Positions 1 through 55,073 of a stretch of DNA of 64,000 bases are shown here, piece after piece. How positions within the stretch are numbered: position 1 is the first letter of the stretch; every line of letters starts with the position of its first letter. The translations under genes were made by a program, and so were the position numbers. Location: assembly GCF_044324875.1 (NCBI RefSeq), contig NZ_CP172185.1; one strand, given 5' to 3'. The notes below the pieces were generated by a model, which was not told the DNA's origin, did not search any database, and saw only the letters and a list, made by a program, of their open reading frames with translations. The stretch comes from Escherichia coli. GTDB taxonomy: Bacteria; Pseudomonadota; Gammaproteobacteria; Enterobacterales; Enterobacteriaceae.

Positions 1-1238
1 GCGGGTTTGAGTGGCAGATCCCCGGTCTGCGCCGCGAACTGGTGATTGCTCTGATTAAATCGTTGCCGAAACCAGTACGCCGTAATTTTGTGCCCGCGCC
101 AAACTACGCCGAAGCTTTTTTAGGCCGCGTCACACCGCTGGAATTGCCGTTGCTCGACAGCCTTGAACGAGAGCTGCGGCGGATGACTGGCGTCACCGTT
201 GACCGCGAAGACTGGCACTGGGATCAGGTGCCCGATCACCTGAAAATCACCTTCCGCGTGGTGGATGACAAAAACAAGAAGCTAAAAGAAGGGCGCTCAT
301 TACAGGATCTGAAAGATGCTCTGAAAGGCAAAGTGCAGGAAACGCTGTCTGCGGTGGCGGATGACGGTATCGAGCAGAGCGGCTTACATATCTGGAGTTT
401 TGGGCAACTGCCGGAAAGCTACGAACAGAAGCGTGGCAACTACAAAGTGAAGGCGTGGCCAGCGTTGGTGGATGAGCGCGACAGCGTGGCGATCAAACTG
501 TTTGATAACCCGCTGGAACAAAAGCAGGCAATGTGGAACGGTCTTCGCCGTTTACTGCTGCTGAATATTCCGTCGCCAATCAAATATTTGCATGAGAAGT
601 TGCCAAACAAAGCCAAACTTGGGCTGTACTTTAACCCGTATGGCAAAGTGCTGGAGCTGATAGACGACTGTATCTCCTGCGGTGTGGATCAACTGATCGA
701 CGCCAATGGTGGCCCGGTCTGGACGGAAGAAGGCTTTGCTGCGCTGCATGAAAAAGTCCGCGCTGAACTGAACGACACGGTGGTGGATATTGCGAAGCAG
801 GTCGAGCAAATCCTTACGGCAGTGTTCAATATCAACAAACGCCTGAAAGGGCGGGTGGATATGACCATGGCGCTGGGGCTTTCTGACATTAAAGCGCAGA
901 TGGGCGGGCTGGTGTATCGCGGTTTTGTCACTGGCAACGGTTTTAAACGGCTGGGCGACACGCTGCGTTATTTGCAGGCGATTGAAAAACGACTGGAAAA
1001 ACTGGCGGTTGATCCGCATCGCGACCGTGCTCAGATGCTGAAAGTCGAAAATGTCCAGCAGGCGTGGCAGCAGTGGATCAACAAACTGCCGCCTGCACGT
1101 CGTGAGGATGAAGACGTGAAAGAGATCCGTTGGATGATAGAAGAGTTGCGCGTCAGCTACTTCGCTCAACAACTTGGTACGCCTTATCCGATTTCGGATA
1201 AGCGTATTTTGCAGGCGATGGAGCAGATTAGCGGTTAA
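1..1238 (+). CDS. hrpA: ATP-dependent RNA helicase HrpA, C-terminal part (5' end lies upstream of the window; reading frame open from position 3)
   Basis: ORF open to the window start with no stop; translation matches the HrpA C-terminal region; followed by a terminator. Confidence 0.9.
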   Translation, partial: GFEWQIPGLRRELVIALIKSLPKPVRRNFVPAPNYAEAFLGRVTPLELPLLDSLERELRRMTGVTVDREDWHWDQVPDHLKITFRVVDDKNKKLKEGRSLQDLKDALKGKVQETLSAVADDGIEQSGLHIWSFGQLPESYEQKRGNYKVKAWPALVDERDSVAIKLFDNPLEQKQAMWNGLRRLLLLNIPSPIKYLHEKLPNKAKLGLYFNPYGKVLELIDDCISCGVDQLIDANGGPVWTEEGFAALHEKVRAELNDTVVDIAKQVEQILTAVFNINKRLKGRVDMTMALGLSDIKAQMGGLVYRGFVTGNGFKRLGDTLRYLQAIEKRLEKLAVDPHRDRAQMLKVENVQQAWQQWINKLPPARREDEDVKEIRWMIEELRVSYFAQQLGTPYPISDKRILQAMEQISG

Positions 1239-1263
1239 CCCTGCTATTTGCCTGATAAATCTC

Positions 1264-1296
1264 AAACCCGGTAAGCATTTAGCGCCGGGTTTTTTC
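1264..1296 (+). terminator. Rho-independent terminator after hrpA
   Basis: GC stem (cccgg...ccggg) followed by a T-run (ttttttcttt). Confidence 0.6.
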
Positions 1297-1525
1297 TTTA
1301 TGAATTCTGAAAAATAGCAAGGGCGGTACTATTTTACATAAGTTACATTCATACTCTGCCCATGGTAAACAGGACGTATTGCAATGAGTAGGCATGATAT
1401 TTTAATGAGATCGTATTATGAGCGAATAATAGAGCTTGATTGCGTCGGTCAGGCTTTAATCTCTTTCTATGAAAAACTTCCAGAGGAAATTTTATCAGAA
1501 AATAATGGATTGGATTAATAGTATG

Positions 1526-1861
1526 AAAAATGTAGACAATATTATCTGGCATGATGGTGTTTTAGTTGAAACAAGAATGGAATGTCACCACGCCGGGTAT
1601 AATTTTATATTGACGACAGAACTTTATGTTGATGAATTTACAGCCGGAAGGGAACGAAAAAGATTCGAGTTTACAGGAGTGGAACATTTATCGCAGGTTA
1701 TGGATATTGCTGAGCTTATAGATAACCAAAACGCAGGTAATATTAAAGATGCGACAATTGTTTATAAGGCAAAGAAGTATGAAATTTCACTTCATTTGTT
1801 TGGCGGTTTTTTAAGTTTTACATTTAAAACCATGCGAGTTGTTGACAATGAATTTGAGTAA
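1526..1861 (+). CDS. hypothetical small protein (about 111 aa from MKNVDNI; alternative start 1469), AT-rich
   Basis: ORF in a markedly AT-rich segment between hrpA and ydcF; its stop overlaps the start of the next ORF. Confidence 0.35.
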   Translation, partial: KNVDNIIWHDGVLVETRMECHHAGYNFILTTELYVDEFTAGRERKRFEFTGVEHLSQVMDIAELIDNQNAGNIKDATIVYKAKKYEISLHLFGGFLSFTFKTMRVVDNEFE

Positions 1862-2297
1862 TGCCAAATGCGACAAATTGTCTTTTTATGAAGAAAAAAT
1901 CCGCTGGCGAATGCGTCGGCAAATCTCGAATGCAGAGGCAATATTTTACGAGAATCAGGAAGAACACATTCAGCGCTTTTTAGGCAGATATACCTGCCGC
2001 AAACCGGTTCTTGTTTATTGGGAAAGTGAACAAAGATGGACATCTGTAAACGGTCTGGAAGTGATGAGTATGTTTGATGGGCATTGTCATCACATCTACC
2101 TTGATGATATCAATAAAAAAATACAAGCTGAATTACCTGAAGATAAAACATTAGGTTTCAAACGTCAATTGCAATTTTTCAGTTTAGGGGATGAGAAGAT
2201 TAGAATATGGGTGCCACAGGGGGAATTATATTTCGCATTAATGAATGTATTGCAGATGTTCCCCCTGAAGAAAATGGTTAATGACTGGACAAGGTAA
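1848..2297 (+). CDS. hypothetical protein (about 149 aa from MNLSNAKCDK), AT-rich
   Basis: ORF whose ATG overlaps the stop of the preceding ORF (translational coupling); no recognisable motif. Confidence 0.35.
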   Translation: MNLSNAKCDKLSFYEEKIRWRMRRQISNAEAIFYENQEEHIQRFLGRYTCRKPVLVYWESEQRWTSVNGLEVMSMFDGHCHHIYLDDINKKIQAELPEDKTLGFKRQLQFFSLGDEKIRIWVPQGELYFALMNVLQMFPLKKMVNDWTR

Positions 2298-2415
2298 TTT
2301 CAAATCACAGTAATGTCCATCGATTATACATGGTACGTAAACAGACTCGCACCGTTTTTGCAGAAGGTTAATGTGTGTCTATTGAGTGCAGTCTCATATA
2401 TGAAGGGGTATTGAC

Positions 2416-2793
2416 ATGGATGAATGTTTTATAAATATCACTCCGACTTCATTGTCTTTTAAAAACGCCGATCTGTCAGATTTAAGCTATAAAAATGCCA
2501 GGCTTGAACTTACCCTGATATGCCCGGCGATCAAGTCAGAAGTTAAGTTATCATTTGACTGGATACATTCATTTCGTGTTACTGACGAAGGTGATTTGTT
2601 AGGAATGTCAGGAATGCACGGTATTAACCAAACAGGTATCTATAGAGTAGTGAATTCCGCCTATTTTTCATGGTTTACTATGCAAAGTTGTGAAATTTAT
2701 AAAAATAATGTGATCGAGCATTATGTCATTGCCACGTCAAATGATGTTATTGATGTTTTATCAACAGTTTCTCCGCAAATACAGTATGACTAA
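2416..2793 (+). CDS. hypothetical protein (125 aa), AT-rich
   Basis: third same-strand ORF in the AT-rich islet; no recognisable motif. Confidence 0.35.
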   Translation: MDECFINITPTSLSFKNADLSDLSYKNARLELTLICPAIKSEVKLSFDWIHSFRVTDEGDLLGMSGMHGINQTGIYRVVNSAYFSWFTMQSCEIYKNNVIEHYVIATSNDVIDVLSTVSPQIQYD

Positions 2794-2908
2794 AACCAGT
2801 GTCTGGTTCGCGATGGCGAGGTAGAAAAAGCATCATCTTCCTTTCAGAGTGCTCCGCTTCTCATTATTATCTCACGCAGTATTCTTAAGGAAACGATAAG
2901 GAGGAACC

Positions 2909-3709
2909 ATGAACATTACCCCGTTTCCGACGCTTTCGCCGGCAACCATAGATGCCATAAATGTTATCGGTCAGTGGCTGGCGCAGGATGATTTCTCCGG
3001 TGAGATGCCGTATCAGGCCGATTGCGTGATCCTTGCAGGCAATGCGGTTATGCCAACTATCGATGCGGCATGCAAGATTGCCCGCGATCAGCAAATTCCT
3101 CTACTGATTAGTGGTGGTATCGGTCACTCGACAACTTTTTTGTATAGTGCCATCGCACAGCATCCGCACTACAACACTATCCGCACCACTGGCAGAGCAG
3201 AAGCTACCATCCTGGCGGATATCGCTCATCAGTACTGGCACATTCCGCATGAAAAAATCTGGATTGAAGACCAGTCAACAAACTGCGGTGAAAACGCACG
3301 CTTTAGCATCTCGCTATTGAATCAGGCCGTAGAACGAGTTCATACGGCTATCGTTGTTCAGGACCCCACAATGCAGCGGCGCACGATGGCGACGTTCCGC
3401 CGTATGACTGGGGACAATCCCGATGCACCACGCTGGTTAAGTTATCCCGGATTCGTTCCTCAGCTAGGAAACAACGCAGACAGTGTAATCTTTGTTAATC
3501 CGTTGCAAGGATTATGGCCGGTTGAGCGTTATCTCTCACTACTCACTGGCGAGCTGCCACGTTTACGCGATGATAGCGATGGCTACGGTCCACGCGGGCG
3601 AGATTTTATCGTTCACGTTGATTTTCCGGCAGAAGTCATCCAGGCATGGCAAACGCTGAAACACGATGCGGTGCTCATCGAGGCGATGGAAAGTCGCTCG
3701 TTACGTTAA
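2909..3709 (+). CDS. ydcF: DUF218-family protein YdcF
   Basis: 266-aa ORF recognised as YdcF; RBS aaggagg upstream. Confidence 0.9.
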
Positions 3710-3905
3710 AAATTGCCCGTTTGTTAACCATTTGTTTGCAAACGGGCATGACTCCTGACGTTTATTTCTGCCTTTTATTCCTTTTACACTTGTTTTTATG
3801 AAGCCCTTCACAGAATTGTCCTTTCACGATGCCGTCTCTATGATGATTGATGTTAATTAACAATGCATTTACCAATAACAAACATATAAATCACAGGAGT
3901 CGCCC

Positions 3906-5345
3906 ATGTCAGTACCCGTTCAACATCCTATGTATATCGATGGACAGTTTGTTACCTGGCGTGGAGACGCATGGATTGATGTGGTAAACCCTGCTACAGA
4001 GGCGGTCATTTCCCGCATTCCCGATGGTCAGGCCGAGGATGCCCGTAAGGCAATCGATGCAGCAGAACGTGCACAACCAGAATGGGAAGCGTTGCCTGCC
4101 ATTGAACGCGCCAGTTGGTTGCGCAAAATCTCCGCCGGGATCCGAGAACGCGCCAGTGAAATCAGTGCGCTGATTGTTGAAGAAGGGGGCAAGATCCAGC
4201 AGCTGGCTGAAGTCGAAGTGGCTTTTACTGCGGACTATATCGATTACATGGCGGAGTGGGCACGGCGTTATGAAGGCGAGATTATTCAAAGCGATCGTCC
4301 AGGAGAAAATATTCTTCTGTTTAAACGTGCGCTTGGCGTGACTACCGGCATTCTGCCGTGGAACTTCCCGTTCTTCCTCATTGCCCGCAAAATGGCTCCC
4401 GCTCTTTTGACCGGTAATACCATCGTCATTAAACCCAGTGAATTTACGCCAAACAATGCGATTGCTTTTGCCAAAATTGTCGATGAAATAGGCCTTCCAC
4501 GCGGTGTGTTTAACCTTGTGCTAGGGCGTGGTGAAACCGTTGGGCAAGAACTGGCGGGTAACCCAAAGGTCGCAATGGTCAGTATGACAGGCAGCGTCTC
4601 TGCAGGTGAAAAGATCATGGCGACTGCAGCAAAAAATATCACAAAAGTGTGTCTGGAATTGGGTGGTAAAGCACCAGCTATCGTAATGGACGATGCCGAT
4701 CTTGAACTGGCAGTCAAAGCCATCGTTGATTCACGCGTCATTAATAGTGGGCAAGTGTGTAACTGTGCAGAACGTGTTTATGTACAGAAAGGCATTTATG
4801 ATCAGTTCGTCAATCGGCTGGGTGAAGCGATGCAGGCGGTGCAATTTGGTAACCCCGCTGAACGCAACGACATTGCGATGGGGCCGTTGATTAACGCCTC
4901 GGCGCTGGAAAGGGTCGAGCAAAAAGTGGCGCGCGCAGTAGAAGAGGGGGCGAGAGTGGCGTTGGGGGGCAAGGCAGTAGAGGGGAAAGGATATTATTAT
5001 CCGCCGACATTGCTGCTGGATGTTCGCCAGGAAATGTCGATTATGCACGAGGAAACCTTTGGCCCGGTGCTGCCAGTGGTCGCATTTGACACGCTGGAAG
5101 AGGCTATCGCAATGGCTAATGACAGTGATTACGGCCTGACCTCATCAATCTATACCCAAAATTTGAACGTCGCGATGAAAGCCATTAAAGGGCTGAAGTT
5201 TGGTGAAACTTACATTAACCGTGAAAACTTCGAAGCTATGCAAGGCTTCCACGCCGGATGGCGTAAATCCGGTATTGGCGGCGCAGATGGTAAACATGGC
5301 TTGCATGAATACCTGCAGACCCAGGTGGTTTATTTACAGTCGTAA
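3906..5345 (+). CDS. aldA: lactaldehyde dehydrogenase
   Basis: 479-aa ORF recognised as AldA (aldehyde dehydrogenase family). Confidence 0.95.
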   Translation: MSVPVQHPMYIDGQFVTWRGDAWIDVVNPATEAVISRIPDGQAEDARKAIDAAERAQPEWEALPAIERASWLRKISAGIRERASEISALIVEEGGKIQQLAEVEVAFTADYIDYMAEWARRYEGEIIQSDRPGENILLFKRALGVTTGILPWNFPFFLIARKMAPALLTGNTIVIKPSEFTPNNAIAFAKIVDEIGLPRGVFNLVLGRGETVGQELAGNPKVAMVSMTGSVSAGEKIMATAAKNITKVCLELGGKAPAIVMDDADLELAVKAIVDSRVINSGQVCNCAERVYVQKGIYDQFVNRLGEAMQAVQFGNPAERNDIAMGPLINASALERVEQKVARAVEEGARVALGGKAVEGKGYYYPPTLLLDVRQEMSIMHEETFGPVLPVVAFDTLEEAIAMANDSDYGLTSSIYTQNLNVAMKAIKGLKFGETYINRENFEAMQGFHAGWRKSGIGGADGKHGLHEYLQTQVVYLQS

Positions 5346-6576: not shown

Positions 6577-7107
6577 ATGGAAAATAAATACTCAAGGTTA
6601 CAAATCAGCATTCACTGGCTGGTCTTTTTGCTGGTTATCGCAGCGTATTGCGCAATGGAGTTTCGTGGTTTCTTCCCACGTAGCGATCGGCCGCTCATCA
6701 ACATGATTCATGTTTCCTGTGGCATCACAATTCTCGTGCTGATGGTGATTCGTCTTTTGTTAAGGCTGAAATACCCAACCCCGCCGATTATACCTAAGCC
6801 AAAACCGATGATGACGGGACTGGCGCATTTGGGACATTTGGTGATCTATCTCCTGTTTATTGCGCTGCCAGTGATTGGTTTGGTGATGATGTATAACCGG
6901 GGCAACCCGTGGTTTGCGTTTGGTATGACGATGCCTTATGCATCAGAGGCCAATTTCGAACGGGTTGATAGCTTAAAGTCGTGGCATGAAACGCTGGCAA
7001 ATCTGGGATACTTTGTCATCGGGTTGCACGCTGCGGCTGCACTGGCACACCACTATTTCTGGAAGGACAACACACTTCTACGCATGATGCCGCGTAAACG
7101 TTCCTGA
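6577..7107 (+). CDS. cybB: cytochrome b561
   Basis: 176-aa membrane protein from MENKYS; ORF-track start at 6541 is an upstream extension. Confidence 0.9.
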   Translation: MENKYSRLQISIHWLVFLLVIAAYCAMEFRGFFPRSDRPLINMIHVSCGITILVLMVIRLLLRLKYPTPPIIPKPKPMMTGLAHLGHLVIYLLFIALPVIGLVMMYNRGNPWFAFGMTMPYASEANFERVDSLKSWHETLANLGYFVIGLHAAAALAHHYFWKDNTLLRMMPRKRS

Positions 7108-7391: not shown

Positions 7392-7667
7392 GTGGCTTCT
7401 GTTTCTATCAGCTGTCCCTCCTGTTCAGCTACTGACGGGGTGGTGCGTAACGGCAAAAGCACCGCCGGACATCAGCGCTATCTCTGCTCTCACTGCCGTA
7501 AAACATGGCAACTGCAGTTCACTTACACCGCTTCTCAACCCGGTACGCACCAGAAAATCATTGATATGGCCATGAATGGCGTTGGATGCCGGGCAACTGC
7601 CCGCATTATGGGCGTTGGCCTCAACACGATTTTACGTCACTTAAAAAACTCAGGCCGCAGTCGGTAA
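7392..7667 (+). CDS. insA: IS1 InsA
   Basis: 91-aa ORF recognised as IS1 InsA. Confidence 0.9.
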
Positions 7668-8089
7668 CCTCGCGCATACAGCCGGGCAGTGACGTCATCG
7701 TCTGCGCGGAAATGGACGAACAGTGGGGCTATGTCGGGGCTAAATCGCGCCAGCGCTGGCTGTTTTACGCGTATGACAGGCTCCGGAAGACGGTTGTTGC
7801 GCACGTATTCGGTGAACGCACTATGGCGACGCTGGGGCGTCTTATGAGCCTGCTGTCACCCTTTGACGTGGTGATATGGATGACGGATGGCTGGCCACTG
7901 TATGAATCCCGCCTGAAGGGAAAGCTGCACGTAATCAGCAAGCGATATACGCAGCGAATTGAGCGGCATAACCTGAATCTGAGGCAGCACCTGGCACGGC
8001 TGGGACGGAAGTCGCTGTCGTTCTCAAAATCGGTGGAGCTGCATGACAAAGTCATCGGGCATTATCTGAACATAAAACACTATCAATAA
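7586..8089 (+). CDS. insB: IS1 InsB' (expressed as InsAB' by -1 frameshift)
   Basis: 167-aa ORF overlapping insA in the -1 frame, as in IS1. Confidence 0.9.
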
Positions 8090-43441: not shown

Positions 43442-43726
43442 ATGCCCTTAGCCGCCAAACTTACCGACAAAGGCACCCAGCACGACGGTTATTACGAGAC
43501 CGTCATCATCGCCGGGTCATCCACCGTTTTTATCGATGGTCTCCCCGCAGCCCGCCAGGGAGATCCGCTGACGCCGCATGCTAAACCGAAGCATCCCCCT
43601 CATCCCCGTAAAATCGCCAGAGGTTCTTCAACCGTCTTTATTGACGGTCTGCCCGCCGCCAGAAGCGGTGATGCTGTTGACTGCGGCGGCGTGGTTATCG
43701 GTGGCGGTACGGTAAATATAGGCTGA
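43442..43726 (+). CDS. PAAR-domain protein (type VI secretion spike tip)
   Basis: 94-aa ORF with two literal PAAR motifs in a duplicated segment (SSTVFIDGLPAARQGD / SSTVFIDGLPAARSGD); strong RBS aggagg. Confidence 0.8.
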   Translation: MPLAAKLTDKGTQHDGYYETVIIAGSSTVFIDGLPAARQGDPLTPHAKPKHPPHPRKIARGSSTVFIDGLPAARSGDAVDCGGVVIGGGTVNIG

Positions 43727-43744
43727 TATGTCTGAGAGGTATTT

Positions 43745-46150
43745 ATGTCCTTAAAAGGTCTTCACTTTACGCTGGAGGTTGACGGCCAGGAGCCGGACAC
43801 CTTTGCAGTGGTGCATTTCAGGTTAATCCAGAACCAGTCTTATCCGTTTGTGATGAGTGTGGATGTTGCCAGCGACTCTTTTATGCAGACGGCGGAGATG
43901 CTGCTGGAGAAGAAGGCGACGCTGACCATCTGGCAGGGCGTCATCCCGCTGCGTTATGTCACCGGCGTGGTGGCGGGTTTTGGCATGCAGGAGAACAATG
44001 GCTGGCAGATGCGTTACCACCTGCGTATCCAGCCGCCGTTATGGCGGTGCGGGCTGCGGCAGAACTTCCGTATCTTCCAGCAGCAGGATATCCGGACGAT
44101 ATCGGCCACGTTACTGAACGAGAACGGCGTCACGGAGTGGACGCCGCTGTTTTATGAGGACCATCCGGCGCGGGAGTTCTGTGTCCAGTACGGGGAGTCG
44201 GACCTGGCGTTTCTGTCCCGGCTGTGGGCGGAGGAGGGTCTTTTCTTCTTTGAGCGGTTTGCGGCGGACAGTCCGGAGCAGAAGCTGACGCTGTGCGACG
44301 ATGTGGCGGGGCTGTCACAGGCGGGGGAGTTTCCGTTTAACCCGGACACATCGGCAGGTGCGGAGACGGAGTGTGTCAGTATGTTCCGTTATGAGGCGCA
44401 TGTCCGCCCGTCATCGGTGCAGAGCCAGGATTACACCTTTAAGGTGCCGGACTGGCCGGGGATGTATGAGCAGCAGGGTGAGAACCTGAACGGACAGCTG
44501 GAGCAGTATGAGATATTTGATTATCCGGGAAGGTACAAGGATGAACAGCACGGCAAGGATTTCACGCTGTACCAGATGGAGAGCCTGCGCAGTGATGCGG
44601 AAAAGGCCACAGGGCAGAGTAATTCGCCGAAGCTGTGGCCGGGAACGCGGTTTATGCTGACGGGGCATCCGCAGAAGATGCTGAACCGTGAATGGCAGGT
44701 GGTACAGAGCATACTGTCAGGAAACCAGCCGCAGGCGCTGCACGGCAGCCAGGGAAAGGGAACCACGCTGGGCAATCAGTTAGAGGTGATACCGGCGGAC
44801 CGGACGTGGCGTCCACGGCTGCAAAACAAACCGAAGGTGGACGGGCCACAGAGCGCCATCGTCACCGGTCCTGCGGGAGAGGAAATCTTCTGCGATGAAC
44901 ATGGACGGGTACGGGTGAAGTTCCACTGGGACCGTTATCACGGGATGACGGAGGCGAGTTCATGCTGGGTGCGGGTATCGCAGGCGTGGGCGGGGCCGGG
45001 GTTCGGTAACCTGGCGATACCACGGGTGGGTCAGGAGGTGATAGTGGACTTCCTGAACGGCGACCCGGACCAGCCGATAATCATGGGGCGGACGTACCAT
45101 GAGGACAACCGTTCGCCGGGCGACCTGCCGGGAACGAAGACGCAGATGACCATCCGGTCAAAAACCTATAAAGGAAGCGGATTTAACGAGCTGCGGTTTG
45201 AAGACGCCACCAGTAATGAGCAGGTGTATATCCATGCCCAGAAGAACATGGATACGGAGGTGCTCAACGACCGGACAACGGATGTGAAACATGACCATAC
45301 GGAAACCATCGGGAACGACCAGAAGATAACGGTGGTGAAGGGGCAGACGGTTCAGGTCGGGACCAGAAAAGAAGGGGGCCACGACCAGAGTATCACGGTG
45401 GCGAACGACCGGTGCATCACGGTACGTAATGACCAGACGCTGCAGGTGACGAATGACCGGACGGTGAGCGTGAGTAATGATGACGGCCTGTACGTCAGAA
45501 ATGACCGTAAAGTGACGGTGGAAGGGAAGCAGGAGCATAAGACGACGGGGAACCATATCAGTCTGGTGGAGGGAAAGCACAGCCTGGTGGTGAAGGGGAA
45601 CCTGGCGAGGAAGGTGAGTGGCGCGCTGGGGATAAAGGTGGACGGGGATATCGTGCTGGAGAGCAGCAGCCGGATAAGCCTGAAGGTGAGTGGCTCGTTT
45701 GTGGTCATCCATTCAGGGGGCGTGGACATCGTCGGGCCGAAAATCAATCTCAATAGCGGCGGTAGTCCGGGGACGCCGGTGCCGGCGCTGCAACCGGCGG
45801 TGCTGAAGACACTGGGGGATGAGAAGAGTGGTGATGGCAGTGATTCCGGAGAAGAAAATGAAGACTCTGGAGGGAACTGCGTGACCGGAAGTGGTGGTGA
45901 TGATCGAGGTGACGATGAGGATGAACCTGAAAAATATACTCTCCAGTTCCATTTTACAGACGATGACGGGATACCGTATTCAGAAACCCGCTACATTGCC
46001 TTCTTTGAGGATGGCACGCAGACCCGCGGAGAAACGGATGAAGAGGGGTATACAGAGCGTTTTTTTGTATCTAGCAAACATGAAATTAAAGTGAAGTTGT
46101 TATTTGCGAATGATGATTTTCTCTCAATGGAAGGACACTATGGACGATAA
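43745..46150 (+). CDS. vgrG: type VI secretion spike protein VgrG with acidic C-terminal extension
   Basis: 801-aa ORF; gp27/gp5-like N-terminal region, repeat-rich beta-helix, then Asp/Glu-rich tail. Confidence 0.9.
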   Translation: MSLKGLHFTLEVDGQEPDTFAVVHFRLIQNQSYPFVMSVDVASDSFMQTAEMLLEKKATLTIWQGVIPLRYVTGVVAGFGMQENNGWQMRYHLRIQPPLWRCGLRQNFRIFQQQDIRTISATLLNENGVTEWTPLFYEDHPAREFCVQYGESDLAFLSRLWAEEGLFFFERFAADSPEQKLTLCDDVAGLSQAGEFPFNPDTSAGAETECVSMFRYEAHVRPSSVQSQDYTFKVPDWPGMYEQQGENLNGQLEQYEIFDYPGRYKDEQHGKDFTLYQMESLRSDAEKATGQSNSPKLWPGTRFMLTGHPQKMLNREWQVVQSILSGNQPQALHGSQGKGTTLGNQLEVIPADRTWRPRLQNKPKVDGPQSAIVTGPAGEEIFCDEHGRVRVKFHWDRYHGMTEASSCWVRVSQAWAGPGFGNLAIPRVGQEVIVDFLNGDPDQPIIMGRTYHEDNRSPGDLPGTKTQMTIRSKTYKGSGFNELRFEDATSNEQVYIHAQKNMDTEVLNDRTTDVKHDHTETIGNDQKITVVKGQTVQVGTRKEGGHDQSITVANDRCITVRNDQTLQVTNDRTVSVSNDDGLYVRNDRKVTVEGKQEHKTTGNHISLVEGKHSLVVKGNLARKVSGALGIKVDGDIVLESSSRISLKVSGSFVVIHSGGVDIVGPKINLNSGGSPGTPVPALQPAVLKTLGDEKSGDGSDSGEENEDSGGNCVTGSGGDDRGDDEDEPEKYTLQFHFTDDDGIPYSETRYIAFFEDGTQTRGETDEEGYTERFFVSSKHEIKVKLLFANDDFLSMEGHYGR

Positions 46151-46523
46151 TAATCAAACTTCTGGACAACCAAAGCCAGAGCCAGAAGAATGTGTGAAAG
46201 AGCAAAAAATAACTGATCATTTTAAAATAATGATTGATAAGGCTCGTAAGGCACAAAAGTTGGTTTTGATAAAAAGAGCAGATGATCTTTTGAGATGGGG
46301 AGCACAGGAGGAATATGATTTCAGTAAGATCTTTGGTGTTAAAGGAAATAAGGAGGTTAATATAAGAAAATATGGACATAATACAGGTAGGCGCATGAAT
46401 GCTAGATTTCTTATGATGGATGGTGTGAGAAGATTAATGATTATAGCTAATGATTTAACAATGAGCAGTTTTATAAATTATATGGATTTGCCCCTATATT
46501 TCCAGACATCTGTTATCACTTAA
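46140..46523 (+). pseudogene. AT-rich gene translationally coupled to vgrG (candidate T6SS cargo/adaptor), 3' end interrupted by IS2
   Basis: ATG at 46140 overlaps the vgrG stop; ORF runs into the IS2 terminal repeat at 46483; removing IS2 and one TSD copy restores a 137-codon ORF ending at 53243. Confidence 0.6.
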
Positions 46524-47059
46524 CCCATTACAAGCCCGCTGCCGCAGATATTCCCGTGGCGAGCGATAACCCAGCGCACTATGCGGATGCCATTCGTTAT
46601 AATGCTCGAACGCCTCTGCAAGGTTCTTTGCTGCCGTTAACCCGTCTGGTTTGGGCATGATACTGATGTAGTCACGCTTTATCGTTTTCACGAAGCTCTC
46701 TGCTATTCCGTTACTCTCCGGACTCCGCACCGCCGTGTTCTTCGGTTCAAGTCCCAACATCCGGGCGAACTGGCGTGTTTCATTAGCCCGGTAGCATGAA
46801 CCATTATCGTAACCGGCTCATTTAAACCGTCTGGTCTGTTTCCTCCGGCTCTACAAAAATAATGTCCATCATTTTTAATGGACACTATCGTATGAAACAC
46901 CGGACCTGGATCACTGAAGCTTTACGTCTTCACTTTGAAGAACATTTACCCCGGGTTGTGGCCGGGCGTCGCCTGGGTGTACCAAAATCAACAGTTTGTA
47001 GTATGTTCGTGCGCTTTCGGAGAGCTGGCCTTTCGTGGCTGCAAAATGGCATCTGAATC

Positions 47060-47160
47060 GATCGCAGTTTGGCATTCGAATCGATCATGATTTGGCATCC
47101 ATCTCCGATCACAGTTTGGCATCACAATCGATCACGATTTGGCATGCTTCCGATCATTGA
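47060..47160 (+). repeat. IS21-family subterminal multiple repeats (tttggcat motifs spaced about 20 bp apart)
   Basis: five or six copies of gatc...tttggcat upstream of istA; inverted copies (atgccaa) at the other end near 49640-49650. Confidence 0.6.
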
Positions 47161-47241
47161 TTGGCATCCTGCCAGTCACTCCGGGAATTAACTCTTTTCA
47201 CCACAGTCTCCATTGCCGTGTTTAAACCAGTGGAGACGTCA

Positions 47242-48807
47242 ATGTCCAGAAAGAGAAAATCCAGGAGCACTATGGAAACCTGTTTTAAGATCCTTCAGCT
47301 CAAGTTCGACAAGAAGCTGACTAACCGTTGTATCGGACTGACGTTACACATCAGCGCCTCAACCGTTTTTGAGGTTCTTGCCCGCTTCAAAGCCTCTTCT
47401 CTGTCATGGCCATTACCTGCTGATATATCCCATGACACGCTGGAGAAACTCATTTTTCCGCCCAAAGACACCTTTGCATCAGAGCTTGTAATGCCTGACA
47501 TGTTGTACTTCGATACGGAAATGAGAAAACCAGGTGTGACGCGGCAACTGTTGTGGATGGAATACAAGGCACAGGCGGGTAACAAAGCGATGGGATACTC
47601 GCACTTCTGCCGTTGCTACCGGGAGTGGAAAAAAACGCGACGTCTCTCCATGCGCCAGGAGCATCGTGCCGGCGAAAAGCTTTTTATCGACTTCTGTGGT
47701 CCTACGGTTCCTGTTATTAATCCGGACACCGGTGAGATACGCCGCGTGGCAATCTTCGTGGCCGTAATGGGGGCGTCCAACTATACCTACGTTGAAGCGT
47801 GCGAAGGTCAGGACATGATGTCATGGTTAAATGCCCACAGCCGTTGCCTGACCTTCCTGGGCGGCGTACCGAAGCTGCTCATCCCCGATAACCTCAGAAG
47901 CGCAGTGAAAAAGGCCGATCGATATGAGCCTGTCATCAACGACAGTTATCAGGCACTGGCTGAGCACTATGGCACGGTTATCATCCCGGCCCGACCACGC
48001 AAACCTAAAGATAAACCAAAAGCAGAAAACGGCGTCCTCATCGTTGAACGATGGCTTCTTGCCCGCATCCGTAATGAAACCTTCCACACGCTCAGGGCGC
48101 TGAATGCGCGCCTTAGGGAGTTACTGACAGACATGAATAACCGGCCAATGAAGGGGTACGGCAATCAAACCCGTGCAGAACGCTTCCGCATACTGGATGC
48201 GCCAGCACTCTCTCCGCTGCCTCTGGCACCTTATGAATACACGGAATACAAAGCTGTGAAGGTTGGCCCTGACTACCACGTTGAATATGCCCGTCACTGG
48301 TACTCCGTTCCACACGAACTGGTCGGTCAGCGTCTGTCACTGAAGGCGGGGCAGTCGGTGGTACAGCTCTGGCACAAGGGGCAGTGTGTGGCGCAACATC
48401 CGCGCAGCACACATGAATATAAACACACAACCAATCCGCTTCACATGCCAGAGCGCCACCGGCAGCACGGGACATGGACACCGGAACGCCTGATCGAGCA
48501 GGGAAAACGTACGGGCCCGTCCACAGGCCGGGTGGTTGAATCCATGCTGAAGGCAAAACCCCATCCGGAACTGGCTTATCGTGCAGTTCTGGGGCTGCTG
48601 GCACTTCAGAAAAAATACGGCCCGGAACGGCTGGAAAAGGCCTGTTACGTTGCCCTGCACTATAACGCCCCTGACAGACGCTTTATCGACAATCTGCTGC
48701 GTCACCATCGGGAGAACCTGGAGCTTCCATTATCCCGCCAGGGCGAACAACATCCGGCATATGCTTCAGAGCATGAAAACCTGCGTGGTCCGGGCTACTA
48801 CCACTGA
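47242..48807 (+). CDS. istA: IS21-family transposase IstA
   Basis: about 521 aa from MSRKRKS with N-terminal HTH and integrase-like core; ORF track begins at 47161. Confidence 0.85.
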   Translation: MSRKRKSRSTMETCFKILQLKFDKKLTNRCIGLTLHISASTVFEVLARFKASSLSWPLPADISHDTLEKLIFPPKDTFASELVMPDMLYFDTEMRKPGVTRQLLWMEYKAQAGNKAMGYSHFCRCYREWKKTRRLSMRQEHRAGEKLFIDFCGPTVPVINPDTGEIRRVAIFVAVMGASNYTYVEACEGQDMMSWLNAHSRCLTFLGGVPKLLIPDNLRSAVKKADRYEPVINDSYQALAEHYGTVIIPARPRKPKDKPKAENGVLIVERWLLARIRNETFHTLRALNARLRELLTDMNNRPMKGYGNQTRAERFRILDAPALSPLPLAPYEYTEYKAVKVGPDYHVEYARHWYSVPHELVGQRLSLKAGQSVVQLWHKGQCVAQHPRSTHEYKHTTNPLHMPERHRQHGTWTPERLIEQGKRTGPSTGRVVESMLKAKPHPELAYRAVLGLLALQKKYGPERLEKACYVALHYNAPDRRFIDNLLRHHRENLELPLSRQGEQHPAYASEHENLRGPGYYH

Positions 48808-48823
48808 CAGAAGGAACAACAGT

Positions 48824-49579
48824 ATGAGTGATAACCTGTTAAACAAACTGACCCAACTGAAACTCCCGGCGATGGCCGGGAGCCTGATACGGCAGCGGGA
48901 AACGCCTCAGACCTACGACGAACTGTCGTTCGAGGAAAGGCTGACGCTGCTGGTTGATGACGAGCTTCTGAGCAGGGAAAACAGCCGTGTGGCACGGTTG
49001 AGAAAAAATGCCGGCCTGAAATACCAGGCAACACCGGAAGGGCTGCGCTATCCGGCCTCAAGAGGTCTGCGGGCTGAACAGATGAGAGAACTGCTGAACG
49101 GCCACTACATAACCCACAGGAAAAACCTGCTGATAACCGGTCCGACAGGATGTGGCAAGAGCTGGATAGCCAATGCGCTGGGCGAACAGGCATGTCGACA
49201 GAAACACAGCGTCCGGTACTGTAGAACCGGGCGATTACTGGAACAACTGGCTCAGGGACGTGTTGATGGCAGCTGGCTGAAATATCTGAAACAGTTGCAA
49301 AAAATACAGGTTCTAATCCTGGACGATCTGGGGCTGGAACAGTTAAGTAACGCCCAGTGTAATGACCTTCTGGAGCTCATAGAGGATCGTTACGGACAAA
49401 GCAGCACGATAGTGGTAAGCCAGTTCCCGGTAGATAAATGGCATGGTCTGATGGAGAACCCAACAACAGCAGATGCCATCCTGGACAGACTGGTACATAA
49501 CTCACACCGAGTGGTCCTTCAGGGAGAGTCACTGAGGAAAAATCCCCCGGTAGTGGAAAGCAGCGAAAAAACGCGTTAA
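48824..49579 (+). CDS. istB: IS21-family ATP-binding helper IstB
   Basis: 252-aa ORF with Walker A GPTGCGKS and Walker B LILDDLG. Confidence 0.9.
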   Translation: MSDNLLNKLTQLKLPAMAGSLIRQRETPQTYDELSFEERLTLLVDDELLSRENSRVARLRKNAGLKYQATPEGLRYPASRGLRAEQMRELLNGHYITHRKNLLITGPTGCGKSWIANALGEQACRQKHSVRYCRTGRLLEQLAQGRVDGSWLKYLKQLQKIQVLILDDLGLEQLSNAQCNDLLELIEDRYGQSSTIVVSQFPVDKWHGLMENPTTADAILDRLVHNSHRVVLQGESLRKNPPVVESSEKTR

Positions 49580-50182
49580 AAAGCGGTAGAAAAAGTTAAG
49601 TTCCCGGTTGATCGAATGGATGCGAATCGCTGATCGGACTTCGATGCCAATCCGTGATCGAATAGAGCGGAATACGCAGTGGCCTTTGCCCGCAGGCATG
49701 TCGGAGCAGGAACTTGATGCCTGCCTTTACGGACAATTTTCCACGGTACCAGTCGTACGTCCTGAAAGCACCGTTATATCCGAAGCCCCCGTGGTAAAAA
49801 AACGTCCCCGGCGGCCCAACTTCCCTTATGAGTTTAAAATCGCCTTAGTGGAGCAGTCACTGCAGCCCGGAGCCTGTGTGGCGCAGATCGCCCGGGAAAA
49901 CGGAATCAACGATAACCTGCTCTTCAACTGGCGCCATCAATACCGGAAAGGTGGCCTGCTGCCTTCCGGAAAAAATATGCCGGCACTGCTTCCCGTGACG
50001 TTAACGCCGGAGCCGGATAATAAAATCCCGGCCCCCGCACAGGAACCAGAGCAGATAAATACACCGTCCGACAGTCTGTGTTGTGAGCTGGTTCTGCCGG
50101 CCGGAACTCTCAGGCTTAAAGGTAAACTGACGCCGGCGTTATTACAGACACTTATCCGCGAAATAAAAGGGAGCAGCCACTG

Positions 50183-50530
50183 ATGATATCTCTCCCTGCA
50201 GGTTCGCGTATCTGGCTGGTTGCAGGTATCACCGATATGCGAAATGGCTTTAACGGCCTGGCATCAAAAGTTCAGAACGTCCTGAAGGATGACCCGTTCT
50301 CCGGACACCTGTTCATCTTCCGCGGACGCCGGGGTGACCAGATAAAAGTGTTGTGGGCTGACAGTGACGGACTGTGCCTCTTCACCAAACGCCTGGAGCG
50401 GGGCCGCTTCGTCTGGCCAGTCACCCGTGACGGCAAGGTGCACCTTACTCCGGCTCAGTTATCCATGCTTCTTGAAGGTATCAACTGGAAGCACCCGAAA
50501 CGAACGGAACGCGCTGGAATCCGCATATAA
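50183..50530 (+). CDS. IS66-family TnpB (orf2)
   Basis: 115-aa ORF recognised as IS66 family Orf2. Confidence 0.85.
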   Translation: MISLPAGSRIWLVAGITDMRNGFNGLASKVQNVLKDDPFSGHLFIFRGRRGDQIKVLWADSDGLCLFTKRLERGRFVWPVTRDGKVHLTPAQLSMLLEGINWKHPKRTERAGIRI

Positions 50531-50549
50531 CCCGTTGTAAAGTGAGGAT

Positions 50550-52121
50550 ATGGACACCTCACTTGCTCATGAGAACGCCCGCCTGCGGGCACTGTTGCAG
50601 ACGCAACAGGACACCATCCGCCAGATGGCTGAATACAACCGCCTGCTCTCACAGCGGGTGGCGGCTTATGCTTCCGAAATCAACCGGCTGAAGGCGCTGG
50701 TTGCGAAACTGCAACGTATGCAGTTCGGTAAAAGCTCAGAAAAACTTCGTGCAAAAACCGAACGGCAGATACAGGAAGCACAGGAGCGAATCAGCGCACT
50801 TCAGGAAGAAATGGCGGAAACGCTGGGTGAGCAATATGACCCGGTACTGCCATCCGCCCTGCGCCAGTCTTCAGCCCGTAAACCGTTACCGGCCTCACTT
50901 CCCCGTGAAACCCGGGTTATCCGGCCGGAAGAGGAATGCTGTCCTGCCTGTGGTGGTGAACTCAGTTCTCTGGGATGTGATGTGTCAGAGCAACTGGAGC
51001 TTATCAGCAGCGCCTTTAAGGTTATCGAAACACAACGTCCGAAACAGGCCTGTTGCCGGTGCGACCATATCGTGCAGGCACCAGTACCTTCAAAACCCAT
51101 TGCACGCAGTTATGCCGGAGCGGGGCTTCTGGCCCATGTTGTCACCGGGAAATATGCAGACCATCTGCCGTTATACCGCCAGTCAGAAATATACCGTCGT
51201 CAGGGAGTGGAGCTGAGCCGTGCCACACTGGGGCGCTGGACAGGTGCTGTTGCTGAACTGCTGGAGCCGCTGTATGACGTCCTGCGCCAGTATGTGCTGA
51301 TGCCCGGTAAAGTCCATGCTGATGATATCCCCGTCCCGGTCCAGGAGCCGGGCAGCGGTAAAACCCGGACAGCCCGGCTGTGGGTCTACGTCCGTGATGA
51401 CCGTAACGCCGGTTCACAGATGCCCCCGGCGGTCTGGTTCGCGTACAGTCCGGACCGGAAAGGTATCCATCCACAAAATCACCTGGCCGGTTACAGCGGT
51501 GTGCTTCAGGCCGATGCTTACGGTGGTTACCGGGCGTTATACGAATCCGGCAGAATAACGGAAGCCGCGTGTATGGCTCATGCCCGGAGAAAAATCCACG
51601 ATGTGCATGCAAGAGCGCCCACCTACATCACCACGGAAGCCCTGCAGCGTATCGGTGAACTGTATGCCATCGAGGCAGAGGTCCGGGGCTGTTCAGCAGA
51701 ACAGCGTCTGGCGGCAAGAAAAGCCAGAGCCGCGCCACTGATGCAGTCACTGTATGACTGGATACAGCAACAGATGAAAACACTGTCGCGTCACTCAGAT
51801 ACGGCAAAAGCGTTCGCATACCTGCTGAAACAGTGGGATGCACTGAACGTGTACTGCAGTAATGGCTGGGTGGAAATCGACAACAACATCGCAGAGAACG
51901 CCTTACGGGGAGTGGCCGTAGGCCGGAAAAACTGGATGTTCGCGGGTTCCGACAGCGGTGGTGAACATGCGGCGGTGTTGTACTCGCTGATCGGCACATG
52001 CCGTCTGAACAATGTGGAGCCAGAAAAGTGGCTGCGTTACGTCATTGAACATATCCAGGACTGGCCGGCAAACCGGGTACGCGATCTGTTGCCCTGGAAA
52101 GTTGATCTGAGCTCTCAGTAA
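50550..52121 (+). CDS. IS66-family transposase TnpC (orf3)
   Basis: 523-aa ORF with leucine-zipper N-terminus, CxxC zinc motif and IS66 DDE core. Confidence 0.85.
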
Positions 52122-52151
52122 ATATCAATACGGTTCTGACGAGTCGCTTAC

Positions 52152-52750
52152 CCATTATCCGTCAGCCACTCCACTGGAGACGACGGAAGATCGTTGCCGA
52201 AGCGGCGTTCCACCGCTCCCAGCATGACGTCCTGTACTGTTTCACTGTTGAAGCCGCCGGTAGTGACCGCCCAGTGCAGTGCCTCACGATCACAGCAGTC
52301 CAGCGCGAACGTGACACGCAGTCTCTCTCCGTTATCACAGCAGAACTCGAACCCGTCAGAGCACCATCGCTGATTGCTTTCTTTCACGGCCACTCTGCCT
52401 GTATGTGCCCGTTTCGATGGCGGTACAGCAGGTTTTCGCTCAAGCAACAGCGCATTCTGGCGCATGATCCGGTAAACACGTTTGGCATTGATCGCAGGCA
52501 TACCATCAAGTTCTGCCTGTCTGCGAAGCAGCGCCCATACCCGACGATAACCATACGTTGGCAGCTCTCCGATAACATGGTGTATACGGAGAAGCACATC
52601 CGTATCATCAGTGTGACGACTGCGGCGGCCATCCATCCAGTCATCGGTTCGTCTGAGAATGACGTGCAACTGCGCACGCGACACCCGGAGACAACGGCTG
52701 ACTAAGCTTACTCCCCATCCCCGGGCAATAAGGGCGCGTGCGCTATCCAC
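52152..52750 (-). pseudogene. insD: IS2 insD, N-terminal two-thirds, truncated by the IS66-family insertion (C-terminal part at 46494-46808)
   Basis: translation recognised as IS2 InsD up to ...VEWLTDNG, where the IS66-family end begins. Confidence 0.85.
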
Positions 52751-53073
52751 TTTTTTGCCCGTCCATATTCAACGGCTTCTTTGAGGAGTTCATTTTCCAT
52801 CGTTTTCTTGCCGAGCAGGCGCTGGAGTTCTTTAATCTGCTTCATGGCGGCAGCAAGTTCAGAGGCAGGAACAACCTGTTCTCCGGCGGCGACAGCAGTA
52901 AGACTTCCTTCCTGGTATTGCTTACGCCAGAGAAATAACTGGCTGGCTGCTACACCATGTTGCCGGGCAACGAGGGAGACCGTCATCCCCGGTTCAAAGC
53001 TCTGCTGAACAATTGCGATCTTTTCCTGTGTGGTACGCCGTCTGCGTTTCTCCGGCCCTAAGACATCAATCAT
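52708..53073 (-). CDS. insC: IS2 InsC (orfA)
   Basis: 121-aa ORF from [18 protein letters not shown] recognised as IS2 InsC. Confidence 0.9.
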
Positions 53074-53310
53074 CTGTTCTCCAATGACTAGTCTAAAAAC
53101 TAGTATTAAGACTATCACTTATTTAAGTGATACTGGTTGTCTGGAGATTCAGGGGGCCAGTCTATTATACAGGTTGTAATGAATTTGCAGCATTCGTCAG
53201 CCCAAGTAAGGATATGCCCTATATAATTAACATAGGAATTTGAGTATAGAGATGGCAAAAAAAATCCAGTAACGGGAAAGGATTCTCATGTTGCTACTTT
53301 ATGTCATGAA

Positions 53311-53613
53311 ATGTCTCATATTCAGTGGTATTATGGGGATAATAAAAAAGGTGGTATGTGGTCACAGGATTATACAACTACTGATAAATATTCAACGTGC
53401 AAAGAGGATGAAGTTTCATATGACGAACATATCCGTATTGCAACTAAACTGATCTCTAAACAAAAAGATCAAATATTCGAGAATGCATATAACATAGAAA
53501 GATATTTTGAAATAAGATTAATTGAAAGTGAGATAGACTCGATTAATGATGAAATATTAAGCAATTCAGTTAAGAAAAAAATAGCGGAATTAGAAAAAGC
53601 ACTTCTCCATTAA
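53311..53613 (+). CDS. hypothetical protein (100 aa), AT-rich
   Basis: ORF in the AT-rich segment between IS2 and the H-repeat fragment. Confidence 0.3.
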   Translation: MSHIQWYYGDNKKGGMWSQDYTTTDKYSTCKEDEVSYDEHIRIATKLISKQKDQIFENAYNIERYFEIRLIESEIDSINDEILSNSVKKKIAELEKALLH

Positions 53614-53636
53614 CTAATAAGTCGAGAAATATATTA

Positions 53637-53900
53637 ATGCTGCAAGCTATAAAAAAAATCATAATAATGACAATCGTAAATATTATATTTTTCTATTCCT
53701 TTCAATCGACTGCGGATGAAATGGTTTTAATAAAAAAATACGGGTTTGGGCTTGAGAGAGATATCAAAGGAAGGCCATTAATTTATCCTATCGAAAATTA
53801 TGATGAGTGTAAGAAAAAATGCAATCATATGAATTATATAGCGGATGTCAATGCTCAATTAGCTATGAGTAAAAAAATAACAGGATTTTTGCTAACATAA
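53637..53900 (+). CDS. hypothetical small exported protein (87 aa), AT-rich
   Basis: N-terminal hydrophobic signal-like segment ending STA, cysteines in the mature part. Confidence 0.35.
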   Translation: MLQAIKKIIIMTIVNIIFFYSFQSTADEMVLIKKYGFGLERDIKGRPLIYPIENYDECKKKCNHMNYIADVNAQLAMSKKITGFLLT

Positions 53901-53953
53901 CCTTTACTAACAATAGCTCTACCACGTATTTTTTTTCTAAATATTACCTACCT

Positions 53954-54457
53954 ATGAAAGTAAAAGATGGAAAAGGAGATGAATATGATGCGATATGCAA
54001 AAAACCATTCAGAATCAACTCTGGGAATATCACGTTGGACTACTTAGGTGGTTCATGTCCTTTTGAAATTAATACGAATCCTGAACGGTGGAATACTATT
54101 AAACCAGGTCGTAGTTTTTTGTTGAGTATAACCTTAAATGATATGTATGCCTTTATACCAGGAGATAATTATTATTTTATAAAATCATCTGGCTATAAAT
54201 TTGTTAATGACAAGTGGTTTACACTCAAATCAATCAATAATATTTTTCTTTATTTTTTAAATTTAAAAATTAATTGTGCTGATGATTTTTTTGATATTAA
54301 TAATTTTACTACATGTGATAATTTGTTATTAGATGAAAAAAAACACTTTTTTATTAATCAGTTATGGGCAATTGAGGATGAAAAAAATTCTATTTACGTC
54401 ACCCCTGATGAAATTTCTATAAGTATAGACGGCGATAACTTAAAGTTGCCATATTAG
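53954..54457 (+). CDS. hypothetical protein (167 aa), AT-rich
   Basis: ORF ending immediately before the H-repeat fragment. Confidence 0.35.
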   Translation: MKVKDGKGDEYDAICKKPFRINSGNITLDYLGGSCPFEINTNPERWNTIKPGRSFLLSITLNDMYAFIPGDNYYFIKSSGYKFVNDKWFTLKSINNIFLYFLNLKINCADDFFDINNFTTCDNLLLDEKKHFFINQLWAIEDEKNSIYVTPDEISISIDGDNLKLPY

Positions 54458-54476
54458 GAATCTGTGAAAGAACAAG

Positions 54477-54965: not shown

Positions 54966-55073
54966 TCTTGCCCTGGCGATCGAATAGCGCAGATGACGGT
55001 GCTCTAAATTTGAATCTAATAAGCCGGTGTTATTTTTCATCCACTATTAAAATCTTGACACAACGAGGCAACA

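Follow-up and report, generated by a model that had tools for sequence, protein, structure and literature searches.

What is the function of the small, AT-rich genes that lie between hrpA and ydcF in some Escherichia coli genomes, and are they recent arrivals or old residents of this site? In the 64,000-nucleotide stretch of E. coli contig NZ_CP172185.1 analyzed here (hereafter, the window), this interval holds a compact islet that encodes three intact small proteins, denoted B, C and D, and the remnant of a fourth, A. A first-pass annotation made from the nucleotide sequence had proposed that these genes form a toxin-immunity or a small defense module. We consider it likely that the islet is a heterogeneous polyimmunity locus, i.e., a toxin-free, same-strand array of orphan immunity genes. 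The relationship to toxin-immunity systems is thus retained from the earlier proposal, but in an immunity-only form, with no toxin gene or toxin remnant, and searches against PADLOC and PHROGs were negative with respect to defense. The features of the islet are as follows:

1313..2835, plus strand: the islet, 1523 bp, 36.5% GC, with borders defined by blastn against the empty site (locus L004)
1384..1518, plus strand: gene A stump (pseudogene), a 44-codon open reading frame (ORF) corresponding to the first ~35 codons of a 141-aa family-A gene, with ~0.28 kb deleted
1523..1861, plus strand: gene B, 112 aa, family B, with conserved WHDG and AGNI motifs and a predicted all-beta fold like that of the PIM7 immunity protein
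1848..2297, plus strand: gene C, 149 aa, family C, with predicted N-terminal helices and a bacterial pleckstrin homology (PH)-like domain
2416..2793, plus strand: gene D, 125 aa, family D, with 28 invariant columns in the family alignment

Organization of the islet genes

The three same-strand ORFs of the first-pass annotation correspond to three intact plus-strand genes; the lengths given for C and D were correct, and the first protein is 112 rather than ~111 aa long. The ORF at 1384–1518, which had been listed as a possible additional small gene, is present but is the stump of a longer one: it shows 86% identity over 35 aa to the intact A of the O157-type locus L003 (ECs2016), is matched by the family-A hidden Markov model (HMM) with an E-value of 9.5e-7, and is marked by RefSeq as a truncated pseudogene. 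In O157:H7, where gene A is intact and encodes 141 aa, the islet corresponds to ECs2016–ECs2019 of strain Sakai. The genes are closely spaced (4 nt between the A stump and B, −14 nt between B and C, and 118 nt between C and D). As had been noticed, the first two intact ORFs overlap at their stop and start, by 14 nt within ATGAATTTGAGTAATG at 1848–1863, and judging from this overlap, B and C are probably co-translated. The description of the whole islet as translationally coupled, however, holds for this one junction only because no other genes overlap and D, located 118 nt downstream of C, is preceded by its own Shine-Dalgarno-like sequence, GAAGGGG.

The islet has no space for a toxin cassette. 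Searches for Rhs-core and VENN motifs in it were negative, as was tblastn with the toxins linked to its relatives, and no fragment of a toxin C-terminal region (CT) precedes B, C or D.

Protein families of the islet

Genes A to D yielded nothing significant in Pfam, NCBIfam, PADLOC or PHROGs, in agreement with the earlier remark that the proteins carry no recognizable motif. PADLOC returned 0 families at E ≤ 1 for all four proteins, and the PHROGs matches were non-significant (SieB-like, E = 0.066, for A, and unknown phrogs for D). Homologs were collected by an exhaustive phmmer search with a joined A+B+C query and by an indexed search for D, which gave 151 representatives at E ≤ 1e-3 for families A, B and C together and 55 for family D. 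These sequences form four distinct families of stand-alone small proteins that are found across Proteobacteria and beyond. Every hit is at most 281 aa long, and none is a C-terminal domain of a long delivery or secreted toxin protein. Word-indexed searches for B and C retrieved close Escherichia relatives only, and the distant ones were found by exhaustive phmmer alone. A degenerate DNA pattern for family B (WHDG...N..AGNI) detected 15 loci, 11 of which were confirmed with the family-B HMM.

Sequence-profile searches of the PDB with families A–D and their linked toxins gave nothing meaningful except for a linker common to solved CdiA-CT structures; a match between family C and MRPS33 (E = 7e-4) was rejected as a chance, low-complexity-like similarity. 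Literature searches with the protein accessions and the ECs2016–2019 locus tags found no mention of these genes.

Genomic context of the four families

The principal evidence comes from the neighborhoods of the homologs. In three loci of Duffyella gerundensis (L005–L007), the D-family gene starts 6 nt after cdiA, which encodes the Fil_haemagg_2 and PT-VENN domains of contact-dependent inhibition (CDI) systems. Other D-family genes belong to orphan cdiA-CT/cdiI or Rhs arrays, in Cedecea, in a metagenome and in the enterobacterial loci L016–L018, with CdiI_3 and other immunity genes as neighbors. The D homologs are 38–49% identical to the islet protein (46% for those of Duffyella). Gene D in the window is an orphan without cdiA, in contrast to its Duffyella homologs, which are directly downstream of that gene. 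The Duffyella CdiA-CT shows no Pfam toxin domain and no solved relative beyond the common linker. The possibility that C is the cognate toxin of D was rejected given that C shows no similarity to the Duffyella CdiA-CT.

In the case of family A, a gene at locus L021 begins 16 nt after a full-length Rhs gene, with a second copy further along the same orphan array, and another family member is encoded in an array with a fragment of a deaminase toxin (Deam_C). For family C, an intact Rhs ORF of 1523 codons lies directly after vgrG at L017, and its last ~60 nt are overlapped by a homolog with 42% identity; the same homolog recurs in the Rhs orphan arrays L016 and L018, which also carry a D-family gene. 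A separate observation concerns a 237-aa Enterobacteriaceae protein (P0230/P0082) in which the N-terminal part of a CdiI_3-like immunity protein is fused to a complete C-family domain. NCBI names this fusion a CDI immunity protein; it either combines two immunity proteins as a polyimmunity fusion or arose by a deletion within an array. NCBIfam searches with the fusion proteins and with the linked toxins gave nothing.

Family B is linked to toxins in three lineages (loci L025, L026, L041 and L042). The gene follows Rhs-CT ORFs in Citrobacter youngae (18 nt), in a gammaproteobacterial metagenome-assembled genome (overlapping) and in ~400 E. coli genomes. In the latter, the yncH-yddH (rhsE-type) locus carries an orphan Rhs-CT and, 26 nt downstream of it, a gene for a 114-aa protein that matches the family-B HMM with an E-value of 5e-38. 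The linked toxin combines a conserved Cys/His-rich segment (GKWKDCGKGCRIRIDGDAVGDGRHLHWEC) with a hydrophobic tail matching the Pfam family Tox-WTIP (PF15654), which was listed in the 2012 catalogue as a predicted pore-former with no immunity partner (PMC3482391). This Rhs-CT has no detectable relation to any PDB chain, and in both E. coli genomes examined (L041 and L042), the cassette contains an internal stop. The B-linked Rhs-CT toxins with the Tox-WTIP tail, in each case followed by a B-family gene, are located at:

L026, 2845–3285, minus strand
L041, 5812–6387
L025, 2205–2702, minus strand

DNA-level searches of E. coli genomes with the C- and D-type toxins recovered the shared linker region only; the B-type toxin alone is clearly present in this species.

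The linker itself is a side observation on these toxins. The Rhs-CT of L017 (~6700–6800) and the CdiA-CT of L007 (~7650–7750), which come from different genera, share the sequence LT(D/E)xEKxELGGxGxGxPxGWGPxDEE before unrelated toxin domains, and the same linker is found in the solved CdiA-CT tRNases 5j43, 5j5v and 8zyc. This is consistent with cassette exchange between the Rhs and CDI systems.

No rhs gene adjoins A, B or C in the window, whereas their homologs at L021, L025, L026, L041, L042 and L017 adjoin or overlap the 3' end of rhs. Polyimmunity loci have been defined as tandem genes of immunity families (at least two, or at least four in the extended form) with no toxin cassettes between them, in the same orientation, with short intergenic distances and with a content that differs between strains of a species (PMC3482391). 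The islet fits this definition because each of its four families occupies an immunity slot elsewhere, and because the genes are arranged head-to-tail on one strand without a toxin cassette, as a strain-variable set. On the strength of these contexts, we propose that A–D are putative immunity-protein families without a model in Pfam or NCBIfam, and that a candidate toxin partner can be named for each. Specifically, B is a predicted immunity protein for Rhs-CT toxins with the Tox-WTIP tail, C is a predicted Rhs immunity protein, with the weakest evidence among the four, and D is a predicted CdiI-type immunity protein. The islet genes were probably derived from orphan cdiA-CT/cdiI and rhs-CT/rhsI arrays.

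By analogy with characterized immunity proteins, each product is expected to be cytosolic and to bind and neutralize a cognate toxin domain injected by the Rhs-bearing type VI secretion system (T6SS) or by the CdiA of a neighboring cell. The carrier would then survive attacks by competitors whose toxins it does not itself make.

Predicted structures

AlphaFold (AF2) models built on the family alignments have mean predicted local distance difference test (pLDDT) scores of 92 for B and 91 for C. The C model consists of a helical N-terminus and a bacterial PH-like (YokE-like) domain, a predicted fold that by itself indicates no function. The B model is all-beta and structurally similar to PIM7 (8owu_E), the immunity protein of the DNase polymorphic toxin PT7(Bc) (PDB 8owu). 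The likeness lies in the fold; PIM7 differs from B in that the two share 14% identity, and the B-linked toxin is an Rhs-CT with the Cys/His-rich segment and Tox-WTIP tail described above. PIM7 uses an aspartate at a position comparable to the WHDG loop of B (bioRxiv 10.1101/2021.10.19.465003). The PIM7-like predicted fold suggests that B might neutralize its toxin via the loop at the start of the first strand, where the invariant WHDG is located.

Variants of the hrpA-ydcF site

At least 80% of the islet is present in 584–586 of 5426 complete E. coli genomes. The fullest version is that of O157:H7, with A, B, C and D all intact (ECs2016–ECs2019; L003), and in the 042-type version, A is truncated and the other three genes are intact. 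In 186 E. coli genomes, the site instead contains a SMI1/KNR4 (SUKH) gene and a gene for a 99-aa protein on the opposite strand, beside stumps of C and D; in L002 (1745–2535), the gene for the 99-aa protein overlaps the SMI1/KNR4 gene. Genomes of E. albertii and of E. fergusonii-like strains have the order hrpA, a DUF7021+DUF2262 gene, A, B, C, D, ydcF, with different genes frameshifted in each (C in L014 and L015; B and C are broken in E. albertii L013). The DUF7021+DUF2262 protein is 285 aa long (L013–L015, ~2692–4003), and the DUF2262 version also occurs in five E. coli genomes. Another Escherichia genome (L012) retains B alone and a stump of D. The states of the site in E. coli are therefore ABCD, A-truncated, SMI1/KNR4 with the 99-aa gene, DUF2262 with ABCD, and empty. 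Given these variants across Escherichia, the hrpA-ydcF site is, as far as the compared genomes indicate, a long-lived variable locus of this genus.

Two further observations bear on the site. In a different genus (L019, 6002–6815; hrpA dS, the synonymous divergence, ~1.06 relative to E. coli), a B-family gene is found right after hrpA and is followed by an overlapping gene with an LprI (lysozyme-inhibitor-like) domain; the 3' flank of hrpA may be a conserved home for such genes. In L014 and L015, hrpA and the islet are E. coli-like (dS 0.13–0.31) and ydcF is very divergent (dS ~1.2), a pattern that indicates a recombination breakpoint at or beside the islet.

Selection and age of the islet

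The ratio of nonsynonymous to synonymous divergence (dN/dS) is 0.14–0.58 for the islet genes, with the highest value for C, compared to 0.00–0.13 for hrpA and ydcF; the islet genes thus evolve faster than their neighbors, yet are constrained. The dS of D and B (~1.0–1.1) is close to that of ydcF (0.9–1.2) in the same genome pairs (E. coli/E. albertii and E. coli/another Escherichia lineage). Together with the B-family gene after hrpA in another genus, this points to old residence with repeated loss rather than to recent import into the 042 and O157 lineages. The islet was probably present already in the ancestor of Escherichia, with later erosion or loss in most lineages of E. coli; K-12 is among these, its state being more likely a loss. 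If the residence is indeed old, the low GC content reflects this class of genes rather than a recent arrival. The first-pass description of foreign-looking DNA accordingly stands for composition only: the islet looks old, being found at the same site in E. albertii, E. fergusonii-like and other Escherichia genomes with a dS like that of ydcF.

A stronger version of this scenario, in which an immunity-only operon has been fixed at one site since before the Escherichia species diverged and has been kept throughout by purifying selection, appears doubtful to us. If true, it would mean that specific Rhs/CDI toxin families, including the Tox-WTIP-tailed Rhs toxins, have threatened these lineages continuously or, alternatively, that proteins with immunity folds have gained a second cellular role.

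Borders, flanks and composition

The islet is flanked directly by hrpA and ydcF:

42..1238, plus strand: 3' end of hrpA, the left flank, from the ORF list and the RefSeq annotation of the matching E. coli 042 region
1265..1295, plus strand: hrpA terminator-like hairpin (AACCCGG, 13-nt loop, CCGGGTT, then a T run), read from the sequence
2909..3709, plus strand: ydcF, the right flank, from the ORF list and the RefSeq annotation

The hairpin is absent from the consensus terminator scan because its loop exceeds 8 nt, and it lies inside the flank that is common to islet-free genomes. The alignment of the hrpA-ydcF interval with other E. coli genomes, which the first-pass annotation had suggested, was run and placed the insertion borders at 1313 and 2835: in the blastn comparison with L004, the left flank is common with K-12-type genomes up to 1312 and the right flank from 2836. 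K-12-type genomes contain 128 unrelated bp in place of the islet, which makes this a replacement rather than a clean insertion; the hrpA-ydcF spacer of L004 is ~270 bp long. That K-12 has no annotated genes here is confirmed for the 235 bp upstream of ydcF that were covered in MG1655, which carry no annotated feature. The opposite picture, an interval identical in K-12 with ORFs that are not conserved, does not apply: K-12 differs, and the ORFs are conserved, with the constrained dN/dS given above and with homologs across Proteobacteria.

The AT-rich character noted initially was borne out as well. At 36.5%, the GC content of the islet is well below that of the hrpA part (52.6%), of ydcF (51.6%) and of the window as a whole (48.9%), and only 6% of the same-sized segments across the 64 kb are equally AT-rich, mostly in a second foreign-looking block at 53–56 kb. 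No flanking direct repeats, integrase, tRNA or Rfam match was found at the islet, and no plasmid or phage copies of it beyond plasmid fragments of the flanks; a mobile-element origin was rejected on these grounds.

The closest genome is that of E. coli 042 (99.9% identity over 1100–3100), for which RefSeq gives the same islet genes as hypothetical proteins and one pseudogene. In the first 6.1 kb, the window differs from 042 (NC_017626.1) by two bases, at 1997 and 2984. At the latter position, the window has CAG where RefSeq 042 has TAG, so that ydcF is intact here and a pseudogene with an internal stop in 042. Beyond the first 6.1 kb, there are many single-nucleotide differences and coordinate offsets. 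The window is not E. coli 042 itself.

Alternative explanations

Several observations weigh against the interpretation of the islet as a polyimmunity locus. The islet proteins are 35–49% identical to their toxin-linked relatives, and immunity is usually allele-specific. The linkage of family C to toxins comes from one enterobacterial lineage (L016–L018) and one fusion protein; in Undibacterium, the C-family gene is solitary among housekeeping genes, as are several B-family genes. The orphan status of the islet genes is judged from the 64-kb window only. A consensus scan upstream of the islet found no promoter-like site, H-NS often silences AT-rich DNA in E. coli, and the frequent pseudogenization implies that selection is intermittent. 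With regard to structure, the PIM7 likeness of B is at the fold level only, the family-B sequence profile finding nothing in the PDB, and PIM7 failed to block PT7 in vitro (bioRxiv 10.1101/2021.10.19.465003).

The most serious rival is that the islet is a decaying relic, a functionless remainder of an ancient Rhs/CDI orphan array that is disappearing through drift. Frameshifts, truncations and deletions affect different genes in different lineages, the islet has been lost from most E. coli, A is already a stump here, the dN/dS values (up to that of C) exceed those of the flanks, and the promoter scan was negative. Nevertheless, ~584 complete genomes from divergent lineages, O157:H7 and the 042 type among them, carry intact copies of B, C and D, and dN/dS is well below 1 even at dS ~1 (which is saturating), a sign of long-term purifying selection. 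Furthermore, the toxin cassettes are cleanly gone while the immunity genes stay tightly packed, and some genomes have acquired a different immunity cargo (SMI1/KNR4) at this site. Taken together, we regard decay without function as unlikely. A related question is whether immunity-family proteins have been co-opted for a housekeeping-like role linked to hrpA or ydcF, which would explain the long residence at one site. The B-family gene directly after hrpA in the genus of L019 (hrpA dS 1.06), the divergence of B and D in step with ydcF, and the solitary B- and C-family genes among housekeeping genes in several phyla are all compatible with such a role. However, these proteins have no known functional link to HrpA or YdcF, the islet is missing from most E. 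coli, and some genomes have other immunity-type genes in its place, so that we find co-option hard to credit.

The remaining two rivals follow the original proposal more closely. Small genes, AT-rich DNA, strain variability and a 14-nt overlap that resembles those of many toxin-antitoxin pairs could suggest that the islet is a self-contained toxin-immunity or toxin-antitoxin module, e.g., that one product of the B/C pair is a toxin and its neighbor the antidote. This is very unlikely given that each of the two genes is found without the other (B in L012, L019 and L026; C in L016–L018 and L044), that both families, where they belong to toxin loci, are encoded downstream of a recognizable Rhs toxin, in the immunity position, and that no member of any family forms the C-terminal domain of a delivery protein. 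Moreover, Pfam and NCBIfam reveal no toxin-antitoxin, toxin or DNA-binding antitoxin domain, and the modeled fold of B matches an immunity protein. A small anti-phage or other defense module unrelated to bacterial toxins could likewise take the form of a variable AT-rich islet of small genes without an assigned function, and A and D have the weak, non-significant PHROGs matches mentioned above. But there is no PADLOC match and no enzymatic or sensor domain, the homologs reside in Rhs and CDI loci and not in defense islands, and no phage or plasmid copies were found; such a module is highly improbable. A polyimmunity locus, seemingly an eroding one, accounts best for the islet.

Other features of the window

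A PAAR gene and vgrG, which encode components of the T6SS spike, are located at 43442–46150, between yncG and yddH. At the same site, E. coli ATCC 8739 and 2014C-3061 carry vgrG-rhs and orphan Rhs-CT/immunity cassettes, including a B-family toxin and immunity pair. Just after vgrG, a segment of ~6.7 kb (~46200–52900) that is not in RefSeq 042 contains an IS66-family element (TnpA, a TnpB-like protein and a 523-aa transposase) and a nested or adjacent IS21-family element (transposase and IstB). Following the PAAR/vgrG region, 53000–56630 is cargo made up of unannotated small genes and is very AT-rich, with a GC content as low as 29.5%.

Implications and comparison with known systems

The reading of the islet as a polyimmunity locus provides a testable function for four "hypothetical" genes present in about one-tenth of the complete E. 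coli genomes, including O157:H7 and the enteroaggregative 042 type, and puts family B forward as the first immunity candidate for Rhs toxins that carry a Tox-WTIP tail. As an enterobacterial example of a toxin-free polyimmunity locus that is seemingly old and eroding rather than recently gained, the islet also bears on the duration of resistance to contact-dependent toxins among bacteria of the gut. Should the proteins prove protective, carrying the islet could shape which E. coli lineages withstand T6SS or CDI attack in the gut.

The same families are found in the orphan cdiA-CT/cdiI and rhs-CT/rhsI arrays (L008, L010, L016, L021, L026 and L041), a class of loci described by Poole et al. (2011, PMC3150448). 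In those arrays, a toxin-CT fragment precedes every immunity gene and the array is attached to cdiA or rhs; the islet has neither.

In Bacteroidales, orphan immunity arrays known as acquired interbacterial defense (AID) clusters confer protection from the T6SS toxins that other strains and species deliver (Ross et al., 2019; bioRxiv 10.1101/471110). The islet resembles them as another array of putative orphan immunity genes. AID clusters are large and reside on mobile elements with recombinases. The islet, in contrast, belongs to Enterobacteriaceae and lacks mobility genes, repeats, a tRNA and plasmid or phage copies.

The closest described enterobacterial case is the yegQ islet of Salmonella Typhi, a putative T6SS/CDI immunity islet that is AT-rich and in which most genes are orphan immunity genes against T6SS and CDI toxins not encoded by that genome (Barretto and Fowler, 2020, PMC7400221). 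Its role was inferred from the genomic context of homologs, and related strains have alternative versions or an empty site (PMC7400221). Both are AT-rich chromosomal islets of putative orphan immunity genes in enteric pathogens; the hrpA-ydcF islet differs in its site, its size (4 genes versus 14) and the lack of Rhs or PAAR fragments.

The best match overall is with the polyimmunity loci of Zhang, de Souza, Anantharaman, Iyer and Aravind (2012, Biol Direct 7:18; PMC3482391). Like these loci, the islet is a tandem, same-strand, closely spaced and strain-variable set of genes from unrelated families with no toxin cassette; with A intact, as in the O157-type version, its four genes correspond to the extended form, and here there are three intact genes and a stump. 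It differs in that its families are absent from the Imm and SUKH families catalogued in Pfam and in that there is no adjacent recombinase, which adjoins several polyimmunity loci but is not obligatory (PMC3482391). Thus, the kind of locus is known but had not been previously described at the hrpA-ydcF site, where it takes a form that is small, apparently old and vertically inherited in Escherichia.

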